From Promethearchaeota archaeon (GTDB lineage Archaea; Asgardarchaeota; Lokiarchaeia; Sigyniarchaeales; SOKP01), in assembly GCA_019058245.1 (NCBI GenBank), contig JAHPZJ010000006.1:96457-160456 (forward strand): a stretch of DNA of 64,000 bases. Direction: 5' to 3'. The notes beneath the pieces are model-generated. The model ran no database searches. It was not told the origin of the DNA and worked only from the letters and a program-made list of their open reading frames with translations. Position numbers and translations under genes: made by a program. Of this stretch, positions 14,343 through 62,538 are shown one piece after another. Within the stretch, counting starts at the first letter, position 1; each line of letters starts with the position of its first letter.

Positions 14343-15500
14343 CTATTTCACACCTCCATATACAGCAAAATAATAGCATTTCCAAATTACGTCAACATAT
14401 TTAAAACCAATATTATCAAGCCACTTTAGCTGGTTGAAAAGTACGGCAGGACAGTCTTCTTGACGATGATCTATGAGAATTCTCTCAATATCATCCATTG
14501 AATAATTACTTCTTAAAAAATCAGTCCATTGCTTTACATACATATCTTGTAAATAATTATTTGAACCCAGAATATTATCCAAATTATAAAATACTCCTCC
14601 TTGATTAAGAGCGTCATAAATTTTTGTATAAAACTTAACTTTATCTTCATCAGACCTAAGATGATGTAAGGCTAATGATGATAATATTACATCACACTGA
14701 GCTGTAAAAGATAGCATATTAAAATCATCTATAAGAAATTCAACATTGTTAAAGTTTGAAAGCTTTTTTTTAGCTAACTCGACCATATTCTCTGATACAT
14801 CAATCATAGTTAATTTAGAATTCGGAAAGTGCATTTTTATCAATTTTGAGAGATTTCCTGTCCCAGAGCCTAAATCAACTATTTTTATTTGTTGATGTAT
14901 ATCAAATGGTATAGAATTTATCAATGCTATCAGCATTTCATTATAATAGGGAACTACTTTGGGGATAAAATCATCATATGCAAATGATATTTCTTCAAAT
15001 CGAACTCTAATTTTTTCATTTATACTTTTTGTATTATACTTCTCTAAATACAAAAGTTTAACATTTTCATTCAATTCCTCGGTTTTAAATATATTATATC
15101 CCAGTTTCTGATAAAGATATAGATTTTTTTCGCTCTTAAATCCAGTAAATAATTCAAATCTGTCAGCATAGCTAAAGTTGTTTTCAATCTTTCTAAGAAT
15201 TAAAGTACCTAACCCTTGATTTTGATATTCTGGATGGACTATTAATTTTCCTATGAAGCATGATTCTTTATCTCGATATGCTCTTACCGATCCAATTATT
15301 TTATCATTTTTTAAAGCTTTTAGAAATATACTTTTTCTAAACTCCTCTTTAAGTTCTTCAATTGTCTGATGTAAAGGAGGGATATTGAAATCATTGTAGA
15401 TTTCTGCTTCGCTTTGATATGCTATTTTTTGAAGTTGAAGAATTTCATCTAAATCATTTTCTTTAACTGATTTAATTTCAACAGATTTAATTTCACTCAT
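14343..15500 (-). CDS. GNAT acetyltransferase fused to a CmoA-like class I SAM methyltransferase
   Basis: N-terminal LIVHPEYQNQGLG and NLYLYQKLGY (GNAT); C-terminal VDLGSGTG, SSLALHHL, LNQGG. Confidence 0.85.
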   Translation of the reverse strand: MSEIKSVEIKSVKENDLDEILQLQKIAYQSEAEIYNDFNIPPLHQTIEELKEEFRKSIFLKALKNDKIIGSVRAYRDKESCFIGKLIVHPEYQNQGLGTLILRKIENNFSYADRFELFTGFKSEKNLYLYQKLGYNIFKTEELNENVKLLYLEKYNTKSINEKIRVRFEEISFAYDDFIPKVVPYYNEMLIALINSIPFDIHQQIKIVDLGSGTGNLSKLIKMHFPNSKLTMIDVSENMVELAKKKLSNFNNVEFLIDDFNMLSFTAQCDVILSSLALHHLRSDEDKVKFYTKIYDALNQGGVFYNLDNILGSNNYLQDMYVKQWTDFLRSNYSMDDIERILIDHRQEDCPAVLFNQLKWLDNIGFKYVDVIWKCYYFAVYGGVK

Positions 15501-15699
15501 TATTTTTTCTCCTCAAAAATTTTTTCCGATATATCATTTCGATTATTTTTTTTTATTTTTTTCTGATATTTTTTTTTTTCACTCATATTCAATATATTTT
15601 ATGAATTGGATTAGAATTTCTTAAAGAAGTGAAAGATAGTTGGAATGATATAAGAATATCTTTAATTTTTAAAAAAAACAGAAATTCTAATAATTAAAC

Positions 15700-15727
15700 C
15701 ATTGCGCACGTTCTACGCGTGCCAATG
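15700..15727 (-). promoter_or_regulatory. Leader hairpin over the last Trp codon and the stop
   Basis: CATTG-GCACG [CGTAGAA] CGTGC-g-CAATG: 10-bp stem with one bulge. Confidence 0.65.
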
Positions 15728-15790
15728 TAATACCCAAAACCAACTAATGAAAAATTTTCTTAAGCTTAAGTTTTTTTTAATTGTTGTCAT
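15713..15790 (-). CDS. Putative Trp-rich leader peptide (25 aa) MTTIKKNLSLRKFFISWFWVLHWHA
   Basis: Read directly on the minus strand: three TGG codons in the last nine codons, TAG stop inside a hairpin loop, same architecture as the leader before trpD. Confidence 0.7.
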   Translation of the reverse strand: MTTIKKNLSLRKFFISWFWVLHWHA

Positions 15791-15839
15791 TTTTCATTCA
15801 AAAGGTTTTGTTAATTATACAAATGTAATAATTAATTGA

Positions 15840-15854
15840 TATTTATATTTTTTT
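15840..15854 (-). promoter_or_regulatory. BRE/TATA-like promoter of leader 2
   Basis: AAAAAAATATAAATA about 50 nt upstream of the leader ATG; identical to 24597..24611. Confidence 0.6.
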
Positions 15855-15929
15855 AAATTCCTTAAATAATGATAAATTAGATTATTTTTTCTAATTTCTA
15901 TTGTCTATTTAAGATTTAGAAAATCTTAA

Positions 15930-16148
15930 ATGGATATATATGCATGGAATACGAAAGTGAGCAGTTTGTTTGATTTCAATAAAGATCCCAGATTGAATAA
16001 TAATATCATATCAGAAAATCCAGATAAAGTGAAAGAACTACTTGAACTGTGTTGGAAAGATGCCCGAGAACCAATTGACTTTGATTTCATGCGCCATTTT
16101 AAAGATCGACTGGGTTGTACACCAGTAACTCGAAAATTAACCAAATAA
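15930..16148 (+). CDS. Small hypothetical protein or gene fragment (72 aa)
   Basis: ATG-started ORF with protein-like composition in otherwise very AT-rich DNA. Confidence 0.45.
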   Translation: MDIYAWNTKVSSLFDFNKDPRLNNNIISENPDKVKELLELCWKDAREPIDFDFMRHFKDRLGCTPVTRKLTK

Positions 16149-16217
16149 TCCAAAGGGATTTTTTTTACTAAATAATTTCACCTAAAATAAATTAATAATA
16201 GTATAGTGAAAAAAGAT

Positions 16218-16336: not shown

Positions 16337-16654
16337 ATGGATATAGGAATAATAATTCTGTTGATTCTAGGAATATTTCTGGCACAAATTTTGATTTTTC
16401 TATTTGTGTTCAGATATACAAAGAAAAAAGGGATACTTCTAAGAGATGAAATGACCCGCGGGATGATGCGTAAATCTAGCGAAATTTCGTTTTGGGGATC
16501 TTGGGTTTTCTGGATCATTATCTTAATATTAGAATCAATTTCAGAGTTCACCTTCAATTGGTATATCTATTGCGGACTAATAGGAATGGGAGTTATTTAC
16601 GTAATTTCTAATGCAATCATAAAATTCCAATTAAAAAACAAAGGTCAGGATTAA
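16337..16654 (+). CDS. Small membrane protein, DUF2178-like
   Basis: Three hydrophobic segments with [15 protein letters not shown] after TM1; translationally coupled to the XRE gene. Confidence 0.7.
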
Positions 16655-16896
16655 TGGCGAAGAAAACTAAAGAAGAGGAGTTTACTACCAGAATCAAGGA
16701 ATTACGGGCTAGATATAATCTGACTCAGAGTGATTTAGCTAAAATGGTTAATGTCCGGCGCGAGACGATCCTTTATATTGAAAAAGGAAAATATAATCCT
16801 TCTCTTGTTCTAGCTCATAAAATCTCAAAAGCATTGAACTCTAAAATCGATGAGATATTTCTCTTTGCAGATGATCAAGACACTAATCCTATTTAA
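16654..16896 (+). CDS. XRE-family HTH transcriptional regulator
   Basis: [44 protein letters not shown]. Confidence 0.95.
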
Positions 16897-16920: not shown

Positions 16921-17514
16921 TTAAAGCTCTAAGAAATTTTTTAAGATTTGAATGCCGTGTGGCTTCATTTTGATGGATTCGGGGTGGAATTGAAGACCTT
17001 CTACGGGATATTGCTTATGTCGAACTCCCATAATCGTACCATCATCCGCTGTTGCAGAGATTTTAAGGTTTTGAGGGAGGATATCCCCCTTTGCTGCTAG
17101 TGAATGATATCGAATAACCTGTAAAGGATTGGAAACATCTTTTAATACTGTTTTTTGGTCGTGAAACACTTTAGATTCTTTACCATGCATAGGGCCTACT
17201 TTAGCTCTTCCTACATATTCCACATTTTCATCTTCTCCAAAAGCTTCGACAATCGCTTGATGACCTAAACAGATCCCCAATATTGGTATTTTGGAGTAGA
17301 ACTCTTTAATGATTGGAATTACTGTACCCGTATCATATTTAGGATGCCCAGGACCAGGTGAGATAATTATCTTATCAGCATTCATTTCTTTTACTTTATC
17401 TACTGCAATATGGTTATCCTCAACAATTATTTCAGCGTCTGGTTGTAATTGACATATATAATTGACCAGATTATACACAAAACTATCATAATTATTAATA
17501 AATAGAATTTTCAT
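16921..17514 (-). CDS. trpG: Anthranilate synthase component II
   Basis: NYDSFVYNL, ISPGPGHP, GICLGHQ, RYHSL, QFHPES. Confidence 0.96.
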   Translation of the reverse strand: MKILFINNYDSFVYNLVNYICQLQPDAEIIVEDNHIAVDKVKEMNADKIIISPGPGHPKYDTGTVIPIIKEFYSKIPILGICLGHQAIVEAFGEDENVEYVGRAKVGPMHGKESKVFHDQKTVLKDVSNPLQVIRYHSLAAKGDILPQNLKISATADDGTIMGVRHKQYPVEGLQFHPESIKMKPHGIQILKNFLEL

Positions 17515-19007
17515 TTTTGTCTCGCCTCTGCGATTTTTATTGATTTCAATACACTATAGAGTTTATTATAAGTCTCCATATATTCTTCATGAGGTTGACT
17601 ATCAGCAACAATACCTCCTCCAGCTTGTGCAAAATATGAGCCATTTCTTCCAAATAGAGTTCTTATTGCAATAGCAAATGTCATATCGCCATTGAAGCTA
17701 AAATACCCGACTCCACCACCATAGGGACCCCTTGACTCTGTTTCTAATTCTTGAATTAACTCCATAGCACGTTTCTTTGGAGCTCCCGAAAGTGTTCCAG
17801 CGGGGAATACACTCTTTAAGACTTGATATCCGTCTAATGGCGTTTTACTTCTAACTTTACTAACAATATGTTGGACTTTTTGATATTTCTGGACTGCCAT
17901 TAGTTCAAATGTATCAACAGAACCCGGATATGAGACCTTAGCTAAGTCGTTCCTTGCTAAATCCACCAGCATTATGTGTTCAGCCTGCTCTTTTGGATCA
18001 TTAAGCAATTCTTTTTCTAACTTTAAATCTTCCTCGGGTGTCTTACCTCTCCTAATCGTACCTGCGATTGGCACTGTGTTAAGAACATTTTTATTCTTGG
18101 AAATAAGTGCTTCGGGGCTACTTCCAATGATCTTAATCTTTCCAAAATTTATATTGTACATATATTGGGAAGGATTAAGCACTCTGAGAACCTCGTAGAT
18201 CTTCATAGCATCGATTTTACTATCCGTGTATAGCCTTCGGGAAATAACTGCTTGTATTATGTCACCCGCGTAAATATGTTCTTTTGTTTTTTCAATCATT
18301 CTTGCATGAGCACTTTCACTCGTATTTGAACGGAACGTGGATTCATCCACTTCATCTATATCTATTGGAATTTCCTTTTTTACGTCCGATTTATTATTTC
18401 TATTAAACAGACTAAGTTGATAACGAATGTCCTTATCTTTAGAATAGTCATCGATGCTATTATCAATCATAAATAGGGCGTTTGATGCATGGGAGTAAAC
18501 CAAAACTTTTGTATAGAGTGCCATCATAATATCTGGAAACTCACTCGTGGATTTATATCCTACATATGGAGCCACCACATCATAACCGATGTATCCTAAC
18601 ATCCCACCATAAAAGATATTCCTTGGGAATAATTCCGTAAAAGGAAGGTTAGAATAAGGAGTGAGACGACTAAGTGTATTAAGAGCTAACATATTATAAT
18701 CCACATTATCCTTGAAAGGGAGGGGATTATGCGGTCTTTCCTCAACTGGATCTTTCGATTCCATATACTCTTTGATAGTCTCACCTCTAGCGCTCGTGAT
18801 ATCGTACATTTTAAATTGATCTTCTTTAATTTCCAGTATAAAATCCGGATCTAGAGCAATAAAACTATATAACGTTTCTTTTGTATTCTCTGAAGCAGAC
18901 TCCAAGAGCGCATGCTTTTTCAAGTCATATTTCTTTACTAAATATTTATAAAATTCAAAGATGTTTTCCAATTCTCCAATTTTTTCAATATGAATATCAA
19001 ATTCCAT
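17511..19007 (-). CDS. trpE: Anthranilate synthase component I
   Basis: LLESA, NPSQYM, GSSPE, PIAGT, AEHIMLVDLARNDL, FPAGTLSGAPK. Confidence 0.96.
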   Translation of the reverse strand: MEFDIHIEKIGELENIFEFYKYLVKKYDLKKHALLESASENTKETLYSFIALDPDFILEIKEDQFKMYDITSARGETIKEYMESKDPVEERPHNPLPFKDNVDYNMLALNTLSRLTPYSNLPFTELFPRNIFYGGMLGYIGYDVVAPYVGYKSTSEFPDIMMALYTKVLVYSHASNALFMIDNSIDDYSKDKDIRYQLSLFNRNNKSDVKKEIPIDIDEVDESTFRSNTSESAHARMIEKTKEHIYAGDIIQAVISRRLYTDSKIDAMKIYEVLRVLNPSQYMYNINFGKIKIIGSSPEALISKNKNVLNTVPIAGTIRRGKTPEEDLKLEKELLNDPKEQAEHIMLVDLARNDLAKVSYPGSVDTFELMAVQKYQKVQHIVSKVRSKTPLDGYQVLKSVFPAGTLSGAPKKRAMELIQELETESRGPYGGGVGYFSFNGDMTFAIAIRTLFGRNGSYFAQAGGGIVADSQPHEEYMETYNKLYSVLKSIKIAEARQK

Positions 19008-19042
19008 TTTTTTATCTGTCCTTTTTATTTTTTTGTTTATAT

Positions 19043-19759
19043 TTATTTATTTTTAATTCCAAAAGCTCTTGGACATTTAACTCTGCATAGATTACATTTT
19101 TGGAGTGTATATCCTTTCTGATGTTTAAAATTCGATATTGGCCTACAAAGTGCTTGATTTACCGTTTCTCCATTTAATGCTTGTTGAGGACAAAATTCAA
19201 TACATATATTACATGAATCCAAACATCCTTCATAAGTGGCAATTGCATCTGCTTCTAGCTCAATATCTACCAGAACGGCTCCAAGTTGGATCATATTACC
19301 ATAAATATTATTAATTAAAAGAGTATTTTTTCCAATAACTCCAAGACCACTAAGATAACCTGCATGTCTTAATGACAAAATTGCTCTTCCATAAGACCTA
19401 TCTGGTTCCCAATACTCGTATGGGTCATCTGATGGTATGGGGACACATCTTATTCCCAATTCCTCTAAGCTATATAAAATATCAATAGTTAATTTATCAA
19501 TAATCCTCATAATCATGCTATTTACAAAAGTATATGGAACACAATTAACAGCATAATTTGAACTGTTAGGAGTTCTTTTTAAGAATACAACTATTGATTT
19601 ACATTCTGGAAAAATATCAGTAGGATGAAATCCTTTAGGCGCATCTTTAAATCTATCAACTGATGCAATTCCACATAGATCAGCTCCTAAATTATTTATT
19701 CTATTCTTAATATAGTTAGAATTAATATTATTGAGTAACTCATTTTCAGTATTTCTCAC
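19043..19759 (-). CDS. QueG-like (epoxyqueuosine reductase-like) Fe-S protein
   Basis: GADLCGIA...P.DI.PECKSIVV, LSLRHAGYLSGLGVIGKNTLL, CLDSCNICIEFCP, CNLCRVKCP. Confidence 0.82.
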   Translation of the reverse strand: MRNTENELLNNINSNYIKNRINNLGADLCGIASVDRFKDAPKGFHPTDIFPECKSIVVFLKRTPNSSNYAVNCVPYTFVNSMIMRIIDKLTIDILYSLEELGIRCVPIPSDDPYEYWEPDRSYGRAILSLRHAGYLSGLGVIGKNTLLINNIYGNMIQLGAVLVDIELEADAIATYEGCLDSCNICIEFCPQQALNGETVNQALCRPISNFKHQKGYTLQKCNLCRVKCPRAFGIKNK

Positions 19760-19762
19760 TAT

Positions 19763-20593
19763 TCAATTCACCCTCCTTATTGCATTCATAATACTTGAAA
19801 CAAAATCCTTCATTTCTAATTCCATCTTCTTATGATCATTAAGATTTTTTTTAACTATATTTACAATAGCAGAACCTATAATGATTCCATTGGCACCAGC
19901 ATCAATAATTGCATTAGCATGTTCTGGTTTAGAAATACCAAATCCAACAAATACGGGGAGAACTTTTTCAGTCTTAAGCTTGATCCGTTTGATAGTATCT
20001 TTAGTAATTTGCGCAACAGTATCCCTAATCCCTGTAACACCCATAATTGCAATTAAATAAATAAAACCTTTTCCTACTTTCAAGATTTTATCTAATCTCT
20101 CCTCTGTTGTGGAAGGAGCAACTAGAAAAATCAAGCAGATATTATATTTTTCACATGCCTTCAAAGTCAAATCTGCTTCTTCTATAGGTAAATCTCCAAT
20201 CACAATTCCATCTACACCGTTCTCTTTAAGATTTTTAAATGTTATATCAAGAGATGCTTCTATGGTGTCAGCACCTTGAATTAGAATGTTATAATAAGTT
20301 AATACAACTATTGGTTTCTCTGTTTCAGATCTTATAGTCTTTATAGCCTTTAAAGCTGTTTTTGTATTTACTCCTGCATTGAAAGCCCTAACATTTGCCT
20401 CTTGAATAGTAGGGCCGTCTGCAATTGGATCAGAAAAGGGAATTCCAATTTCAAGAATATCAGCATATGGTTCTATGATTTTGGCAAGCTTTATAAATTG
20501 ATCCATATTGGGATCTCCAGCCACTAAGAATGGCATAAATCTTCTTTCATTATTATTTTTGAACAATTCTAATATTCTATTTGAATCTGTCAT
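19763..20593 (-). CDS. trpA: Tryptophan synthase alpha
   Basis: [35 protein letters not shown]. Confidence 0.97.
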
Positions 20594-21807
20594 TTTATGC
20601 TGAACTCCATATGTTTTTTAATAATATCAAGATCTTTTGAACCAGATCCTGAAAGATTAATAATTACGATATCATCTTTTTTGAACATATCTTTATTTTT
20701 TTCTAAATAAGCTAAAGCATGAGAGCTTTCCAAAGCTGGGATTATTCCTTCAAGTTTAGATAGGTTTTTGAAAGCTTCTAATGTTTCATTATCGGTCGCT
20801 TCTCCAACAACTAATCGATTAAGTTGGTGTAAATAACAATGTTCAGGACCTACCCCTGGATAATCTAATCCCGCACTTATTGAGTGTGTTTCTATTATAT
20901 TTCCATACTCATTTTGTAAAAGGTATTGCATAGCACCATGCAAAACTCCTCTACGTCCTAATCCTAAGGCAATAGAATGTTTATTTGTGTCCCTACCTTC
21001 TCCAGCTGCTTCAACTCCAATTAATTGTACATTTGAATTATCAATAAAATCATAAAACGCCCCTATGGCATTACTCCCTCCACCTATACAAGCAATTATA
21101 GCATCAGGGGGTTTTCCTTCAAGTTCTAAAATCTGTACTTTCATTTCTTTCCCTATAATCCTTTGAAATTCTCGAACAATTAATGGATAGGGATGGGGAC
21201 CTACTACACTCCCCATTAAATAATGATATTCTTTCAAATTGGCAATCCAAAATCTAAGACCTTCATTAACAGCATCTTTTAAAGTTCTTGAACCAGACTT
21301 AACTGGAATCACTTCGGCACCTAGAATTTGCATTCTATAGACATTATAGGCTTGTCTTTCAATATCAATTTCACCCATAAATACTTTAGTTGGCATACCA
21401 AAATATGCACCAGCTATAGCAGTTGCAAATCCATGTTGTCCTGCTCCTGTTTCAGCTACTAATTTCTTTTTTCCCATTTTTTTAGCGAGAAGAGCTTGCC
21501 CCATAACATTATTTATTTTATGAGCACCTCCATGGTTAAGATCTTCTCTTTTTAAATAAACTTTGCAACCAATAAAATCGCTATATCTCTCAGCATAATA
21601 TAATGGTGTCGGTCTGCCACTATAAAATCTTAATATCCGTTCAAATTCCTCAATGAAATTTTCATCATGAATGTATCGGTTAAATGCTTCAGTAAGTTCA
21701 TTGAGGGCAGGCATTAATATTTCAGGTGCAAACATGCCACCAAATTCTCCGAATTTTCCTAATTCGTCTGGATATTTGTCAATATAATCCATTTTTTTCA
21801 TACTCAT
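20590..21807 (-). CDS. trpB: Tryptophan synthase beta (TrpB1 type)
   Basis: [46 protein letters not shown]. Confidence 0.97.
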
Positions 21808-22451
21808 ATATTTTTCTTAATTTCTTTTATTTTATCTAAAAATTTTTTAATTTTTAAAGGACTTTTAACACCTTTTTTTGATTCCAAAGAACTACTTACA
21901 TCAATTCCATATGGTTTTATCTTTTTGATTATATCTTCTATATTATCGATACTAATTCCTCCTGCCAGAATGATTTTGGTTTCAGAAATATTTTCCATTA
22001 ATTCCTTAATTATACTAATCTCTAACTTATTTCCATGCCCTTCGCTGTTATCAATTAGAATTGCAAAGAAGCTACCTTGTGACTCATTGATTTTAGTGAT
22101 AATCTCTTGTAGATTTGAATGATTTAACTTTAGTGCTAATATTATTTTCTCCTTTAATTCTTTTGAAATACTTCCTAATTCCTCTATACTCATATTACTA
22201 TGAATTTGATAATAGTTTACCTTAATATTGTTTACAATTTTCTTTAATTCATCAACGGTTCGGGGTTTACTAACCACAACTGTTAGGATATCATTAGATA
22301 TATTATCAAGAAGATTATTTATTTCTGTTTTCTTCAAGTTCCTTGGAGAAGAGGGGACATTATAAATAAAACCAACCGCATTAGCCCCATTTTCTGCACA
22401 AAGAGAAATTTCTTCTGGTTTTTTTAATCCACAGATCTTTATATACTCCAT
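21804..22451 (-). CDS. trpF: Phosphoribosylanthranilate isomerase
   Basis: [27 protein letters not shown]. Confidence 0.94.
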
Positions 22452-23245
22452 TAAGAACTTCCTCTTAACTCTTGAATTTTTTCTTTAATATTTTCGGATT
22501 GCATTATAGAAGAACCAACTAAGAAAGCATCTACCTTATATGGAACAAGAAAGTTGATATCATCTTTAGTAGAAATTCCACTTTCGCTAATCACACAAGT
22601 TTTATTCCCAACAATTTCTTTGATTTTTGGTATTAACTCCTTCGAAGTATTAAGATCTATTAGCATATTATTTAAATTACGATTATTTACACCAATCAAC
22701 TTGGGAATATGCCCAATTTCGAGTAAAGATTCAATATCTTTTAATTCTGATTTATCATGAATTTCTATTAATGGTTCTAGATCATATTGAATTGCCAATT
22801 CATATAAATTATTCAAGTTACCAAGTTGATTAATTAACAAGATATTAGTGGCTCCAATTTTTTTTGCTAATCGAAGCTGTAATTCATCGAAAACAAAATC
22901 CTTCATTAAACAAGGAATTTTAGTAGCATTTACAGCTTCCATTAGATTTTCAAATGAACCATTAAAATATTTTGGTTCTGTAAGTATGCTAAGTCCAATT
23001 ACTCCTGCGTTTTCCATTTCTTCTGCAACTTTAGAAACATTTATGTTAGATCTTATACTTCCCAGAGAAGGAGAGGAAGGTTTTATTTCCGAGATTATCG
23101 AAATTTTTCCTTGTTTACCAATATTCTCACTTAAAGGGATCCTTGAAGAAGCTTGAAAAGTCTTTGCTAAACTTTCAAACAAATCTATTTGTTTTACCAG
23201 TGATTTTTTTCTGCTTGCTAATATTTGATGTAGAATATTGGTCAT
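22451..23245 (-). CDS. trpC: Indole-3-glycerol phosphate synthase
   Basis: ISEIKPSSPS, SILTE..YF.GS, LMKDF, GVNNRNL, ISESGI. Confidence 0.95.
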   Translation of the reverse strand: MTNILHQILASRKKSLVKQIDLFESLAKTFQASSRIPLSENIGKQGKISIISEIKPSSPSLGSIRSNINVSKVAEEMENAGVIGLSILTEPKYFNGSFENLMEAVNATKIPCLMKDFVFDELQLRLAKKIGATNILLINQLGNLNNLYELAIQYDLEPLIEIHDKSELKDIESLLEIGHIPKLIGVNNRNLNNMLIDLNTSKELIPKIKEIVGNKTCVISESGISTKDDINFLVPYKVDAFLVGSSIMQSENIKEKIQELRGSS

Positions 23246-23252
23246 TATTTCT

Positions 23253-24308
23253 TCATAATATATTATTTAATTTTTGTTTATCTCCACCAGAAACCTCAAT
23301 AAAATTCTCGAGTTTTTGAAAAGCTTTGCCTTCTTCTATAGAATTTTTTGCCATAGAAATCCCCTCGTCAATGTCTTTTACAATATTAGCGCTAGTAAGA
23401 GCTAAGGCAGCATTCATCAAGACAGTATTATACTTAGCTCCTTTTAATTGATTTTTGAGGATACCTAACGCAATTTTCAGATTCTCATCAAGATTTCCAG
23501 CTAATATTTCTTCCACGGTACAATCTGGAAGGTTGAAATCTTTATTCGTTAAAGCATAAGATTCAATATTCCCATTTTTAACCTCAGTTATATAATTAAT
23601 TCCTATAGGTGCTAACTCATCAATTCCATATGAATTATGTACTGTGAATACATGTTTTCCTCCAAGATTTCCAAGGACTTTTGCCATAACTGGTGCTAAA
23701 TCTTTTTGGAAAACGCCTAGAGTGTGATAAGGAGCATTTGCAGGATTTGTTAAAGGTCCTAATATGTTAAAAACAGTTCTAATTTTTAGTTCCCTCCTTG
23801 TTGGCATTGCATGTTTCATTGCAGGATGAAATAAAGGTGCAAACATAAAACCAATACCTACTTGTTCTATACATTTTTTAACCTCTTCTGGGGATAAATC
23901 AATTTTTACACCTAACCCTTCTAATAAATCTGCACTCCCACATTTACTCGTAACTGCTCTATTTCCGTGTTTTGCAACAGGAACGCCAGCACCCGCTACA
24001 ACTAATGCTGAGATCGTACTTATATTAAAGGTTTTTACTTTATCTCCTCCAGTACCACATGTATCCAATAATTCTCTATTTATTTGCGGTTCAATTCGAT
24101 TTGCGAATTCACGCATAATTCGCGCAAAACCTGTGATCTCTTCTATAGATTCACCTTTCATATTTAAAGCTGTTAAAAATGCTCCCAATTGGGAAGCAGA
24201 AACATTTCCACTCATTATTTCTCTCATAATATTTTCTGCTTCGCTTGTTGATAAATCAACTTTTCTGATAATTTTATGTAATCCGTTAATTATTTTTTCT
24301 TCAAACAT
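23253..24308 (-). CDS. trpD: Anthranilate phosphoribosyltransferase
   Basis: DTCGTGGD, FNIST, VAKHGNR..TS..GSAD, RTVFNILGPLTNPA. Confidence 0.97.
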   Translation of the reverse strand: MFEEKIINGLHKIIRKVDLSTSEAENIMREIMSGNVSASQLGAFLTALNMKGESIEEITGFARIMREFANRIEPQINRELLDTCGTGGDKVKTFNISTISALVVAGAGVPVAKHGNRAVTSKCGSADLLEGLGVKIDLSPEEVKKCIEQVGIGFMFAPLFHPAMKHAMPTRRELKIRTVFNILGPLTNPANAPYHTLGVFQKDLAPVMAKVLGNLGGKHVFTVHNSYGIDELAPIGINYITEVKNGNIESYALTNKDFNLPDCTVEEILAGNLDENLKIALGILKNQLKGAKYNTVLMNAALALTSANIVKDIDEGISMAKNSIEEGKAFQKLENFIEVSGGDKQKLNNIL

Positions 24309-24486
24309 TTTTCTGCTTGTTTTTAATTTTTTATTTAGTTTTATCTACACATTATTAATGTGTGACTTTACTATATTGGAATTCAATTTAATAAAGCACA
24401 TATAGAAAATAAGTAAGATGTTTTCAGAAAGGAGGATTAAAGAATAGTATAATGTGAACAATAAAATATAATTTAACCTATGTGAA

Positions 24487-24504
24487 GCGCGTTCTTATGC
24501 GCGC
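24487..24504 (-). promoter_or_regulatory. Leader hairpin over the stop codon
   Basis: GCGCG [CATAAGAA] CGCGC: an all-GC stem in very AT-rich DNA. Confidence 0.65.
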
Positions 24505-24548
24505 CAAGACCAATGCCAACGAAAAGGAATTATTTTTTCATTAGCCAT
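24495..24548 (-). CDS. trpL: trp operon leader peptide (17 aa) MANEKIIPFRWHWSWRA
   Basis: ATG GCT AAT GAA AAA ATA ATT CCT TTT CGT TGG CAT TGG TCT TGG CGC GCA TAA, ending 186 nt upstream of trpD on the same strand; three Trp codons in five. Confidence 0.85.
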   Translation of the reverse strand: MANEKIIPFRWHWSWRA

Positions 24549-24596
24549 TTTTTTAAACCATATTTCATATATCTTGAAAGAATTAAGGATTCTCAC

Positions 24597-24611
24597 TATT
24601 TATATTTTTTT
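24597..24611 (-). promoter_or_regulatory. BRE/TATA-like promoter of the trp leader
   Basis: AAAAAAATATAAATA about 49 nt upstream of the leader ATG; identical to 15840..15854. Confidence 0.6.
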
Positions 24612-24770
24612 ATATCTTAGAATTTTAGTAGACTCTTAAAGATAATAAAAACCCTCTCTGTTCTCTACATATTAATTATTAAAAAATTAACAAATAGAGT
24701 TAATATTAAATTACTGTTATAATTGATTATATTGAAATTGAATTTTTCTTATATCTCAAATGAGTAGATT

Positions 24771-27629
24771 ATGGAGGAAATTGACCCTAAGAAGTTAACT
24801 CCTATGTTAAAACATTGGTATTCAATTCGTAAAAGATTTCCTTCAGATTATCTCATTGCATATCGCATGGGCGATTTTTATGAATTTTTTTATGATAATG
24901 CTGAAAGAATTTCAAAGCTTTTAGGAATAACTCTAACAAAAAGAGGAGATATTCCCTTAGCAGGGATTCCTCATCATTCTGGTCATAATTATTTTAATAA
25001 TTTAATGAACCTCGGTGAAACATTAGTCATAGTTGAACAATTAGAAGATCCTGCTACAGTAAAGGGAAGAATTGTAAAGCGTGGAGTTACTCGAGTGCTC
25101 TCACCAGGAACAATTATAGAACCAAACCTGCTAAAATCAAATCAAAATAATTATATTGCCTCCATGATTAAAGAAAAAAATGGATTTGGTGTTGCTTTTA
25201 TGGATATATCTACTGGAGAGTTTGTAGCTACTGAAATATCAAATAAGAATCAAGATTCACAAGAACAATTATTGAGTTTACTTTCTCAGTATGACCCTGT
25301 AGAATTAATTATACCTCTTGATCTAAAAAATGATGAGCGACTCTTTATTTTATTGACAGATTTAACTAAAGCGATCATTAAATCATATGATGAGCATGTT
25401 TTTTTATACGAGGAGGCCTATACATTAATTTCCCGTCATTTTAAAGTTACGAATTTAGAAAGTTTTGCCTTAGAAGATAAACCCATAGCCATTCAAGCCG
25501 CGGGAGGCCTATTAGCATTTTTAAAAGATACCCAACGAGATGTGATTCCAAATATCTTTAAAGTCAATGTTATTAAAGAAGAAAACGTACTCCACTTAGA
25601 CTATATTACACAGAGGAATTTAGAGTTAATTAATTCACTTTGGGAAAGAGGTAAGGATACCACGCTATATTCTATTTTTAACCACACTTGTACTCCAATG
25701 GGTGCTCGTTTAATAAAGAAATTCATCCTCCAACCTCTTACAGATATTAAAGAAATTAATCAACGATTAAAAATCGTCCAAAAGTTTAAAGACGATATTT
25801 TTCTAAGATCTGATCTAAGGGAGGAATTAGGTGTTATTGGTGATTTAGAAAGATTTATTAATAGAATTACTTATGCGGGTCGTACTAATGCTCGAGATCT
25901 AATAAATATTAGAAATTCTTTAGAGAAAATTCCAATAATCAAGCAATTATTAGAGAAGGCTGATATCCCGGAAATTTCAAATTTTCTTGAAAAGATTAAT
26001 ACTTTCAATGAAATCAAAGAATTAATAAATATTTCAATTAAGGATAATCCCCCTACTACTATAAAAGAGGGCAATATCATTAAAAATGGTTTCAATAATG
26101 AATTAGATGAGCTCAGAGATATAGTACAGAATGGAAAGAAATATATTCTGGACTATGAAGGAGAACAGAAGAAAAAGTGGAATTTAACGACAGGTTTAAA
26201 AGTTGGATATAATAATATACTAGGTTATTATATCGAAATAACATTAAAAACTCTAAATATTATAAAAACCGTTCCTGAAGAGTATAATGAAAGAGCAACC
26301 CTTAAGAATGCAAAAAGATATACTACAAAACGATTAAAAGAACTTGAAGAGAAAATTTTGAGTGCAGAAGAAAAAATCAACGATTTAGAATATGAGATAT
26401 TTAATACTATTCGTGAAAAAGTTGAAATAGAAACAAAAAATATTCTTGAGACTGCCAAAAGTATTGCTGCTATTGATGTACTTACTTGTTTTGCTGAAAT
26501 TGCAGAAATATATAACTATTCAAGACCAATTATCAATCATGAAAATAAAATAATTATAAAAGATGGTAGACATCCCGTTATTGAACAAATAAACTTAGAT
26601 GAGCAATTTATCCCTAATGATTGTTATTTAGATAATGATAATGACCAACTATTAATTATTACTGGCCCAAATATGGCTGGCAAAAGTACATTTTTAAGAC
26701 AAGTAGCTTTAATCTGTATAATTGCACAAATGGGATGTTTTGTTCCAGCAAAATCTGCTACAATCGGAATAATTGACCAAATTTTTACCCGAATAGGAGC
26801 CTCTGATGATCTTGCCAGAAAATTAAGTACTTTTATGATTGAAATGACTGAAACTGCTAAAATTCTAAATTATGCTACACCAAAAAGTATAGTCATCATA
26901 GATGAATTAGGGAGGGGAACAAGTACTAGTGATGGGCAAAGTATAGCAATGGCAACTCTTGAGAAATTACATGAGCTAAAAGTAAAGACTCTATTCAGTA
27001 CCCATTATCATCAATTAACAGAACTTAATTTACCAGGAGTAAAAAATTATCATTTAGACATTATCGAAAATGATGATGGGAGTATCAATTTTGTAAGGAC
27101 ATTAAAGCAAGGAAGTACAGATAAATCTTATGGTATTCATGTTGCAAAACTAGCAGGAATTCCTGATGATGTGATAATAAGAGCTTTTGAAATTCTTGAA
27201 CAAATTGAAGAAAAAGATCCTTTTAGGACAGCAATTAGACAAAATGGAGAATTGGCTTCATCAAGTAAATACTATGATAAAATTATTGATGAAAAAAAAG
27301 TTGAGTTAGAAAATCTTAATCAAGAACTTAAAGCAATAAGGGCTTCATTAAACGAATGTATTGAAGATCTAAACCAAAATCAAAAAGAATTATCAAAAAA
27401 ACAGAATGAAATCAAAGAGATTGAACTGAAAAAAGCAAAAATTTCTGAAAGTAAAACTCCAAAAAAGAAAAAATATGTACAGACAAGTTTATTCGAACCA
27501 TTAAAGAATACAGAACAAGTAAACGATCTAGTTCATTTTATTAAGGAAATTATTATAAATTCTGAAAATCCAAGTAAAATAAAAGAACAATTAGATGAAT
27601 TAATAAAAAAATTAAAAAAACTCAGCTAA
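24771..27629 (+). CDS. mutS: DNA mismatch repair protein MutS (MutS1)
   Basis: YRMGDFYEFF, Walker A GPNMAGKST, STFMIEM, DELGRGTST, STHYH, SYGIHVAKLAG. Confidence 0.97.
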   Translation: MEEIDPKKLTPMLKHWYSIRKRFPSDYLIAYRMGDFYEFFYDNAERISKLLGITLTKRGDIPLAGIPHHSGHNYFNNLMNLGETLVIVEQLEDPATVKGRIVKRGVTRVLSPGTIIEPNLLKSNQNNYIASMIKEKNGFGVAFMDISTGEFVATEISNKNQDSQEQLLSLLSQYDPVELIIPLDLKNDERLFILLTDLTKAIIKSYDEHVFLYEEAYTLISRHFKVTNLESFALEDKPIAIQAAGGLLAFLKDTQRDVIPNIFKVNVIKEENVLHLDYITQRNLELINSLWERGKDTTLYSIFNHTCTPMGARLIKKFILQPLTDIKEINQRLKIVQKFKDDIFLRSDLREELGVIGDLERFINRITYAGRTNARDLINIRNSLEKIPIIKQLLEKADIPEISNFLEKINTFNEIKELINISIKDNPPTTIKEGNIIKNGFNNELDELRDIVQNGKKYILDYEGEQKKKWNLTTGLKVGYNNILGYYIEITLKTLNIIKTVPEEYNERATLKNAKRYTTKRLKELEEKILSAEEKINDLEYEIFNTIREKVEIETKNILETAKSIAAIDVLTCFAEIAEIYNYSRPIINHENKIIIKDGRHPVIEQINLDEQFIPNDCYLDNDNDQLLIITGPNMAGKSTFLRQVALICIIAQMGCFVPAKSATIGIIDQIFTRIGASDDLARKLSTFMIEMTETAKILNYATPKSIVIIDELGRGTSTSDGQSIAMATLEKLHELKVKTLFSTHYHQLTELNLPGVKNYHLDIIENDDGSINFVRTLKQGSTDKSYGIHVAKLAGIPDDVIIRAFEILEQIEEKDPFRTAIRQNGELASSSKYYDKIIDEKKVELENLNQELKAIRASLNECIEDLNQNQKELSKKQNEIKEIELKKAKISESKTPKKKKYVQTSLFEPLKNTEQVNDLVHFIKEIIINSENPSKIKEQLDELIKKLKKLS

Positions 27630-61392: not shown

Positions 61393-62538
61393 ATGGCAGA
61401 GGAAGAAAGCTTTTTGAACGCAAAAGCCTTGGTTGTTGATAATGGAACCGGTATTTCCAAAAATGGATTTGCTGGCGAGGATCAACCAAGGTCAGTTTTC
61501 CCAACACTAATTGGTTATCCCAAGTATGAAAGTATCATGACTGATGTTGAACATTATACGCGGGAATATTATATTGGTGAGGAAGCTATGCAATTAAAAG
61601 GCGTTTTAAAGTTAATGTTCCCTGTTGAACATGGTATCATTGAAGACTGGACAGCAATGGAGAAAATCTGGCATTATACATTTTATACTGATTTGCGTAT
61701 CGATCCAAGTGAACATCCTGTTCTTTTGACTGAAGCACCATTGAATCCACGACCAAATCGTGAAAAGATGGCTGAAATTATGTTTGAAACCTTTAATACG
61801 CCTGCTCTTTATGTAGCAATGCAAGCAGTATTAAGTCTTTATGCTTCGGGTCGTACTACTGGATGTGTTATAGATATTGGTGATGGTGTTTCCCACGTTG
61901 TACCTATTTTTGAAGGATTCGCCTTAAGCCATGCTATCCAAAGAATTGATCTCGCAGGTCGGGATATTACAACCTACTTACAGAGACTTCTTCGACAAAA
62001 GGGATATTCTTTCACAACATCAGCAGAAAAAGAAATTGTTCGAGATATTAAGGAAAAATTATGCTATGTAGCAATCGATCCTGAAAAAGAAATGATGCTT
62101 TCAAAGAAAGTAGCTGGGATGGAAAAGAGTTACATGCTTCCTGATGGAGAAACTATTAATGTTGGTGTAGAAAGATTCCTTGCTCCTGAGTGTTTCTTTA
62201 ATCCGAGCGTAATCGGAAAAGAATTAGAGCCTCTTGATGATGTAATTGTTGGTGCCATTTCAGAATGTGACGTAGATCTTCGAAGAGATTTATATAGCAA
62301 CATTGTACTTTCTGGTGGTTCCACTATGTTCCCTGGTATTAAAGAAAGACTAACCAAGGAAATTAAGGAGCAAATTCCTGAAAGTGTTGATGTAAAGATT
62401 ATCGCACCTCCAGAGCGTATGTACTCAGTATGGATTGGTGGAAGTATTCTCAGTTCACTGAAAACGTTTCATCGCATGTGGGTAACTAGGAGAGAATATA
62501 AGGAGATGGGACCACAGGTAATTCACCGATGCTTCTAA
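61393..62538 (+). CDS. Lokiactin (eukaryote-like actin)
   Basis: [75 protein letters not shown]-terminal HRCF. Confidence 0.97.

Follow-up and report, generated by a model that had tools for sequence, protein, structure and literature searches.

The window analysed here, a stretch of 64,000 nucleotides, carries a trp operon on its minus strand, with mutS divergent from it (Table 1). The gene order trpDCFBA-EG, given in an initial annotation of this DNA, is borne out by Pfam, with the addition of a 238-aa ORF between trpA and trpE. This ORF (19043-19759, minus strand) contains one Trp residue and has only weak 4Fe-4S/QueG-like matches (TIGR00276, E = 1e-12 over 65 residues). Together, the eight operon proteins contain two Trp residues in 2,444 aa, compared with 0.97% in the long ORFs of the genome (binomial P = 1.4e-8); the operon enzymes avoid Trp, and this fits what is expected of starvation-sensing control.

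Between a TATA-like box and trpD, the initial annotation had placed a 17-codon minus-strand ORF with three TGG codons, and the coordinates agree: the ORF starts with an ATG at 24548-24546, ends with a TAA at 24497-24495, and has its TGG codons at 24518-16, 24512-10 and 24506-04. Exactly 186 nt separate the stop codon of this upstream ORF (uORF) from the ATG of trpD (24308), and this leader RNA is, as had been described, U/C-rich and poor in G (9.1% G, 36.6% T). Trp codons at this density are rare in the genome (29% G+C), with at least three W within seven codons being present in only 29 of 33,909 short ATG ORFs (8-45 codons). Because of this rarity, and because the feature is kept in orthologous leaders, a chance origin is unlikely; the uORF ahead of trpD is real, well beyond chance.

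Table 1 Positions of the trp operon, the two Trp-codon leaders and their RNA elements in the window.
Feature	Position	Strand	Basis or remark
Operon trpD-trpC-trpF-trpB-trpA-ORF238-trpE-trpG	16921..24308	-	Pfam, NCBIfam
TATA box ATATAAATA of first leader	24597..24605	-	~48 nt before uORF ATG; same distance in group-A leaders
P0 5' arm GAAAUAUGGUUUAA	24553..24566	-	5'UTR immediately before uORF start; in MFE fold
Leader ORF, 17 codons, MANEKIIPFRWHWSWRA-stop	24495..24548	-	Sequence, genome W-density count, orthologues, frame test
P1 hairpin of first leader	24486..24505	-	5' arm formed by last W-R-A codons, stop TAA in loop
P0 3' arm UUAAAUUAUAUUUU, contains first U-tract	24463..24476	-	Conserved block ~20 nt past stop
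U/C-rich, G-poor spacer, candidate termination zone	24400..24462	-	Base composition
P3 hairpin GUGCUUUAUUA-AAUUG-AAUUC-CAAU-AUAGUAAAG-U-CAC	24362..24399	-	RNAalifold, compensatory changes
P4 hairpin ACACAU-UAAUA-AUGUGU	24347..24363	-	Sequence and alignments, no covariation evidence
TATA box ATATAAATA of second leader	15840..15848	-	49 nt upstream of second-leader ATG
Second leader ORF, 25 codons, MTTIKKNLSLRKFFISWFWVLHWHA-stop (group-B type)	15713..15790	-	Scan of intergenic short ORFs
P1 hairpin of second leader, GCACG/CGUGC, stop TAG in loop	15704..15723	-	Sequence
P2 long-range stem of second leader	15611..15690	-	UUAGAAUUUCU (15690-15680) with AGAAAUUCUAA (15621-15611)
GNAT acetyltransferase and class I SAM methyltransferase fusion gene	14343..15500	-	212 nt 3' of second leader

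TrpD was detected in 34 of 154 genomes of the order and in 65 of 400 genomes of the phylum. All order-level loci with enough upstream DNA harbor a short ORF with a Trp-rich tail 130-505 nt 5' of trpD (for example MAPENNSFWRWQWPWRWQ-stop, MTTAKNFVWRWQWSWWRWQ-stop, ..LIWIWAWRWHA-stop and MAILPRTIAWSWRR-stop), and the only order-level trpD loci without a leader are on contigs cut within <=409 nt. The C-terminus of these order-level ORFs is W-x-W-R-x-stop. In one trpD-bearing genome (G042), the leader candidate is weaker, with two W, and is placed 316 nt 5' of trpD (L133/L169). Other Asgard families contribute six trpD-first operons in which the W-run ends 49-91 nt 5' of trpD; here, a hairpin over the stop codon is followed by T5-T7 runs, and some of the leaders have no clear ATG. 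The initial annotation had named the lack of a Trp-rich uORF in orthologous leaders as grounds for abandoning its proposal; with such a uORF present in every orthologous trpD leader with enough sequence, the proposal is not refuted. In several relatives, an 80-99-aa ORF of no known family, with the motif ..GPEKxKTAxFIAxNY..VY.., lies between leader and trpD (L113:1228-1500, L114:2558-2809, L115:1200-1499, L116:1248-1490, L119, L121 and L128). A Pfam search of this ORF gave no family; it is absent from the window, and a degraded remnant is seen in L003. It could be an accessory regulator.

A total of 71 distinct Trp-rich short ORFs (2-6 W) were collected from Lokiarchaeales and other Asgard lineages, and the genes 3' of them are trpD, trpE, trpA, trpB2 or the GNAT-methyltransferase gene. 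Since the same leader types precede all of these genes, the leader would appear to mark Trp-supply genes in general, as expected for a Trp-responsive cis-regulator. A 19-mer of the group-A type, to which the first leader of the window belongs, has matches in 104 of 154 order genomes, and trpD is missing from the majority of these. Among 30 group-A loci that were fetched, 15 precede a TrpB-like PLP enzyme, TrpB2 (NF009057, ~633 bits), and 8 precede trpD, either directly or via a small ORF; 2 are cut by contig ends, and 5 two-mismatch matches are spurious. Many Lokiarchaeales genomes without trpD carry a group-A leader ahead of TrpB2 (L196-L222), which suggests Trp-regulated indole salvage via TrpB2 in apparent Trp auxotrophs. 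In the source genome (G000), the assembly of which is 76% complete, trpB2 was not found.

The second leader in the window, of the group-B type, lies ahead of a gene for a GNAT-methyltransferase fusion; neither this leader nor the covarying long-range helix P0 and the P3 hairpin described below had featured in the initial annotation. A group-B 25-mer gave 22 matches in 18 of 135 family genomes, and its reversed control gave none. The adjacent gene is trpD, trpE, trpA or GNAT-methyltransferase, with some genomes having one copy at trpD and another at trpE, and the group-B architecture is found ahead of trpD in five relatives. The C-terminus of these leaders is TWFWxWRWHA-stop. The pairing of leader and GNAT-methyltransferase gene is conserved in four other genomes, including that of a member of the same genus (G100), in which trpD was not found; on the strength of this conserved pairing with a Trp leader, the fusion is probably part of the response to Trp starvation. 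When 2,313 intergenic short ORFs of the genome were scanned for single-residue runs of other amino acids, no leader of a his or cys gene was found. His- and Cys-rich short ORFs were rejected as leaders; downstream of them are an M50 peptidase/AN1 protein, an unknown protein and a RelA/SpoT-domain protein.

In 60 of 71 leaders, an ATG in frame with the W-run lies eight or more codons before it, with no intervening stop codon; among 142 control frames, which are the two remaining frames of each leader at that position, only 7 have one. Some leaders have GTG or TTG at the position of the ATG of their relatives. The W-run comprises 3-5 W in 61 of the 71, the stop codon follows the last W within one or two codons in 64, and the number of codons to the first W is clustered at 8-10 in group A and at 12-16 in group B. 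Only two indels fall inside the ORF in the alignment, both of 3 nt; the W codons are kept, but the N-terminal residues vary freely from leader to leader. These counts overstate independence, as the leaders are related to each other. The reading frame thus appears to be under constraint, although translation is supported by comparative evidence only, without ribosome profiling. The frame statistics and the free N-terminus fit a translated sensor in which the peptide sequence is of little importance, and the constraint on the frame speaks against a purely protein-bound UGG repeat.

In the absence of data on the transcription start site (TSS), a single transcript from the conserved TATA box is inferred from G-U pairs on the minus strand and from the helices between uORF and gene. 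The motif CCTTAA (24583-24588, minus strand) is conserved 8-9 nt past the TATA box in group-A leaders; it may be an operator or an initiator-proximal element, with control of initiation layered on the leader. In the trpD leader, the 80 nt from +20 contain 5% G and 50% T, and leader spacers in general are U-rich (46% versus 35%). The spacer in the window has U4 runs only; U5-U7 tracts are present in the spacers of most relatives, as judged by eye and without a count. Also by eye, the starts of structural genes and their SD-like motifs (trpD, trpB2) lie in A-rich stretches outside predicted helices. Such unstructured, A-rich gene starts argue against masking of the ribosome-binding site.

The 331-nt leader folds better than shuffled sequences (z = -3.4). 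Across 31 leaders, all 14 pairs of P0 are changed on both sides, in 59 cells compared with 17.4 +/- 4.3 after shuffling (0/500), and the covariation score of 0.273 exceeds the 0.055-0.137 obtained with slid partners. For the tested structure as a whole (P0 and P1), 85% of cells pair, compared with 34-44% with a slid partner. The initial annotation had suggested building a covariance model; such a model, built from 15 leaders, recovered 31, including leaders of trpB2. The P0 alignment was fitted to this model, which favors the P0 structure, but the complementarity is also visible in the raw sequences (AUAUGAUUUAA/UUAAAUCAUAU against AUGGUUUAG/CUAAACCAU).

The hairpin that had been noted around the uORF stop, P1, is present: its arms GGCGCG (24505-24500) and CGCGCT (24491-24486) form five G-C pairs and one G-U pair and enclose an 8-nt loop. 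Its energy is unexceptional against dinucleotide shuffles (z = -0.4 in the window, median -0.57 over 70 leaders) and there is hardly any covariation, but pairs from the last eight codons enclose the stop codon in 64 of 70 leaders, an arrangement for which there is no shuffle baseline. Support for P1 is therefore positional, not energetic. An outer P1 stem, CAGUG/CAUUG, was rejected: 83% of cells pair, but there is no covariation, and the stem is broken in the window. P3 spans 38 nt, ~55 nt 5' of trpD, and covaries (one pair is AU in 9, GC in 8, UA in 4 and UG in 2 of 24 sequences); P4 and the base of P3 share a CAC. Group-B leaders differ: here, the partner of the 5'UTR is the start of the W-run (20 of 21 leaders, z = -2 to -5), and the U-tract region pairs downstream to form P2, a stem that in the second leader shows wobble-compatible changes in relatives. 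A helix of the P0 type is not significant in group-B leaders (z about 0 to +1). No conserved antiterminator or alternative helix was found, either in leaders folded with the W-run masked or in a 24-sequence alignment lacking the W-run. Two pairings considered by eye were not retained, namely that of a CAUUGG box with the apical CCAAU of P3, for which there is one compensatory case only (L203), and that of the P1 3' arm with the P3 5' arm, for which support is inconsistent.

Demonstrated at this locus is a Trp-codon ORF that is under constraint and lies within conserved helices; the Trp-supply genes downstream of it themselves avoid Trp. It is likely that the element is a translated Trp-sensing leader that attenuates the downstream Trp genes through the speed of the ribosome at TGG codons. 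This interpretation rests on comparison, with no transcript, TSS, 3'-end or ribosome-profiling data, and the output step is inferred. The earlier proposal of ribosome-coupled Trp attenuation is supported, while the step from stalling to read-through, and the choice between intrinsic and aCPSF1/FttA-dependent termination, remain inferences only.

In this mechanism, transcription is inferred to start ~25 nt past the conserved TATA box, and a ribosome would load on the 17-codon ORF with RNA polymerase still inside the leader. Loading would have to be early, as a block ~20 nt past the stop codon pairs with the 5'UTR (P0), closing the start region. The P0 helix itself is shown by covariation; closure of the start region is an inferred consequence, and would follow once ~50-95 nt more RNA is made, with P0 closing the region in group-A leaders and the W-run doing so in group-B leaders. 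The ORF would then be translated chiefly by the first ribosome to load, one that follows close behind the polymerase. When charged tRNA-Trp is plentiful, the ribosome would reach the stop codon and leave, P1 and P0 would fold, and the polymerase would presumably be lost in the U-rich spacer, through intrinsic termination at U-tracts or with the help of aCPSF1/FttA, a homologue of which is encoded in the genome (879 bits). When Trp is scarce, a ribosome stalled on the W codons would be expected to hold P1 open and so alter the fold of the leader, allowing the polymerase to continue past P3 and P4 into trpD. The second leader would act in the same way on the GNAT-methyltransferase gene. Several observations weigh against this scheme, among them the U4-only runs in the spacer of the window and the unexceptional energy of P1. 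How stalling leads to read-through is not explained by structure, since no conserved antiterminator-type pairing was found, and P1 would also lie beneath a ribosome at the stop codon, so that the model needs either fast release or pausing of the polymerase. The evidence leans, if only slightly, towards a broader reading in which this is a modular Asgard Trp sensor: a cassette of TATA box, W-containing uORF and folded RNA placed before every unit of the Trp regulon (trpD, trpE, trpA, trpB2 and the GNAT-methyltransferase gene), with ribosome-coupled attenuation and an archaeal output through U-tracts or aCPSF1/FttA.

The same ribosomal sensor might instead act on mRNA stability, on processing or on translation of the first gene, with P3/P4 as the effector. 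We regard such an output as unlikely, although P3 is the best-conserved element beside the structural gene and covaries, P4 and the P3 base compete for the CAC triplet, no terminator/antiterminator pair was detected, and the spacer of the window has no long U-tract. Against it, the A-rich stretches in which trpD and trpB2 have their start codons and SD-like motifs are free of predicted helices, spacers are systematically U-rich, and U5-U7 runs are seen by eye in most relatives. A further possibility concerns the signal: a TnaC-like nascent-chain arrest peptide would sense free tryptophan and not the charging of tRNA-Trp. The residues between the W's are variable (H/Q/R, S/F/L/P/A), and the bases that are conserved coincide with helix arms, namely GGCG in P1 and ACUUGGUUUUG pairing with the 5'UTR. 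The conserved C-termini of both groups and the closeness of the stop codon to the last W do favor arrest, but multiple cognate codons and Trp-poor enzymes fit starvation sensing, and TnaC serves the opposite need, induction of catabolism at high Trp. Peptide arrest therefore seems quite improbable.

Regularly spaced triplet repeats in a trp leader are also a feature of the B. subtilis TRAP leader, and the UGG repeats (UGGCNN hexamers) could in principle be the site of a Trp-activated RNA-binding protein, with the ORF being incidental. The regular spacing of, for example, TGGCGT TGGCAG TGGCCT TGGCGT TGGCAG in L113 is in keeping with this, as is the presence in some relatives of the conserved 80-99-aa ORF between leader and trpD. 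However, TRAP binds untranslated (G/U)AG repeats, whereas the Asgard repeats are UGG codons in a strongly constrained ORF, and their spacing is irregular in group-B leaders. Moreover, the leader is kept in the window and in L003, where the small ORF is absent or degraded, and no match to TRAP (Pfam PF02081) was found in the 76%-complete source genome by a search that does detect B. subtilis TRAP in a control. A TRAP-like site is thus highly improbable. That the ORF is a functionless chance frame in an AT-rich intergenic region can be virtually discounted; its shortness and unexceptional hairpin energy would allow this, but conservation, the regulon-wide association, the frame statistics and the covarying helices contradict it.

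Attenuation by a translated Trp-sensing leader, the reading favored here, invites comparison with bacterial systems. Leader-peptide attenuation is a textbook bacterial mechanism that needs a ribosome closely trailing RNA polymerase, and related leader-peptide attenuators control his, leu, thr and phe genes. Like trpL, the Asgard leader is a short ORF before trp genes that has several Trp codons towards its C-terminal end and then Arg, with the stop codon close by; trpL of E. coli ends in WWRTS. Both have a hairpin in which the 5' arm consists of the Trp codons and the stop codon is in or near the loop (the 1:2 hairpin in trpL), both have a segment further downstream that closes the start region of the leader (by inference in the Asgard case), and in both the RNA continues into a U-rich tract. 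The enzymes under control are Trp-poor in either case. In contrast to trpL, the Asgard leader has an archaeal host and a TATA-box promoter, its W codons alternate (W-x-W-x-W) where those of trpL are in tandem, and neither 2:3 and 3:4 alternative hairpins nor a GC hairpin abutting a U-run were found. It also has additional conserved elements, namely P0 enclosing the whole ORF, P3/P4 and, in group B, P2. Archaeal termination relies on U-tracts and aCPSF1/FttA, with no bacterial-type terminator or Rho. The initial annotation had likewise seen no E. coli-type terminator, and none emerged here: neither a conserved alternative pairing nor an Rfam Trp_leader match was found. An Rfam cmscan of 23000-26000 at E <= 1 returned only two chance matches to unrelated families, with RF00513 (Trp_leader) not among them. 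With no match to that model, no 2:3/3:4 set and different elements, the Asgard leader is taken to work like bacterial trpL without being a member of RF00513. The same interval gave no Rfam match to the T-box (RF00230); a T-box leader has just one specifier codon, located in a loop, as well as a bulge that binds the tRNA acceptor, as opposed to the several TGG codons in the ORF here.

The Rho-dependent attenuators of bacteria (tnaC-tnaAB; mgtL-mgtA and corA) offer a further parallel, in that a ribosome on the leader ORF gates the access of a termination factor to unstructured, G-poor RNA. In archaea, polarity is believed to result from aCPSF1/FttA (PMC12548453, citing Sanders 2020). The differences are that this factor has no relation to Rho, that the Asgard leader has no defined entry site for it, and that the signal is probably tRNA-Trp charging as opposed to free Trp or proline/Mg2+.

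The characterized mode of trp control in archaea is reportedly the TrpY repressor with its TGTACA (TRP box) operators, which Xie and Reeve are said to have described in 2005. It shares with the Asgard leader a Trp-responsive control of archaeal trp operons, but TrpY is a DNA-binding protein that acts at the promoter. TGTACA boxes are absent from 24309-24770 and from 15501-15940, and only 1 of 37 trpD-first leaders has a single box. By contrast, trpE-first operons of other Asgard lineages have no W-run leader but tandem TGTACA beside the TATA box; a TGTACA-N4-TGTACA arrangement directly 5' of the TATA box is found in trpE-first L142, L145, L147, L148, L152, L154 and L158. The tandem Asgard motif resembles the TRP boxes bound by TrpY in methanogens. 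With the leader in trpD-first and TGTACA in trpE-first operons, two modes of Trp control seem to coexist in the phylum. Several of these trpE-first loci, and others, also have a GGAGG followed by a mini-ORF, (V/M)(R/G)Y..W.., with a single Trp codon, and the trpD-first outgroup leaders L141 and L143 have a similar mini-ORF, MGYRVWI, ~200 nt upstream.

Open-access papers and preprints yielded no archaeal case of leader-peptide attenuation. If the mechanism proposed here is correct, a leader-peptide attenuator would be known for the first time from outside Bacteria, and there would be direct genetic evidence that transcription and translation are functionally coupled in the prokaryotes most closely related to eukaryotes. 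It would also mean that the logic of attenuation exists in Archaea, built on archaeal promoters and termination signals and with a different RNA architecture. The leader sequence can serve to mark genes under Trp control in the genomes of uncultured Asgard archaea, and as such points to TrpB2 and the GNAT-methyltransferase fusion as parts of the response to Trp starvation.

Between the trp operon and the second leader, and convergent on trpG, the window also contains three plus-strand ORFs (16337-16896 and 15937-16150), which by eye are likely to encode an XRE-type HTH protein, a small membrane protein and a ~70-aa ORF product. Further away, it carries a full-length actin-family gene (61420-62532, plus strand; G000:C6:157876-158988) that scores 441 bits to Pfam Actin; the genome has five such full-length matches, the best of them at 441 bits, consistent with Asgard lokiactin.
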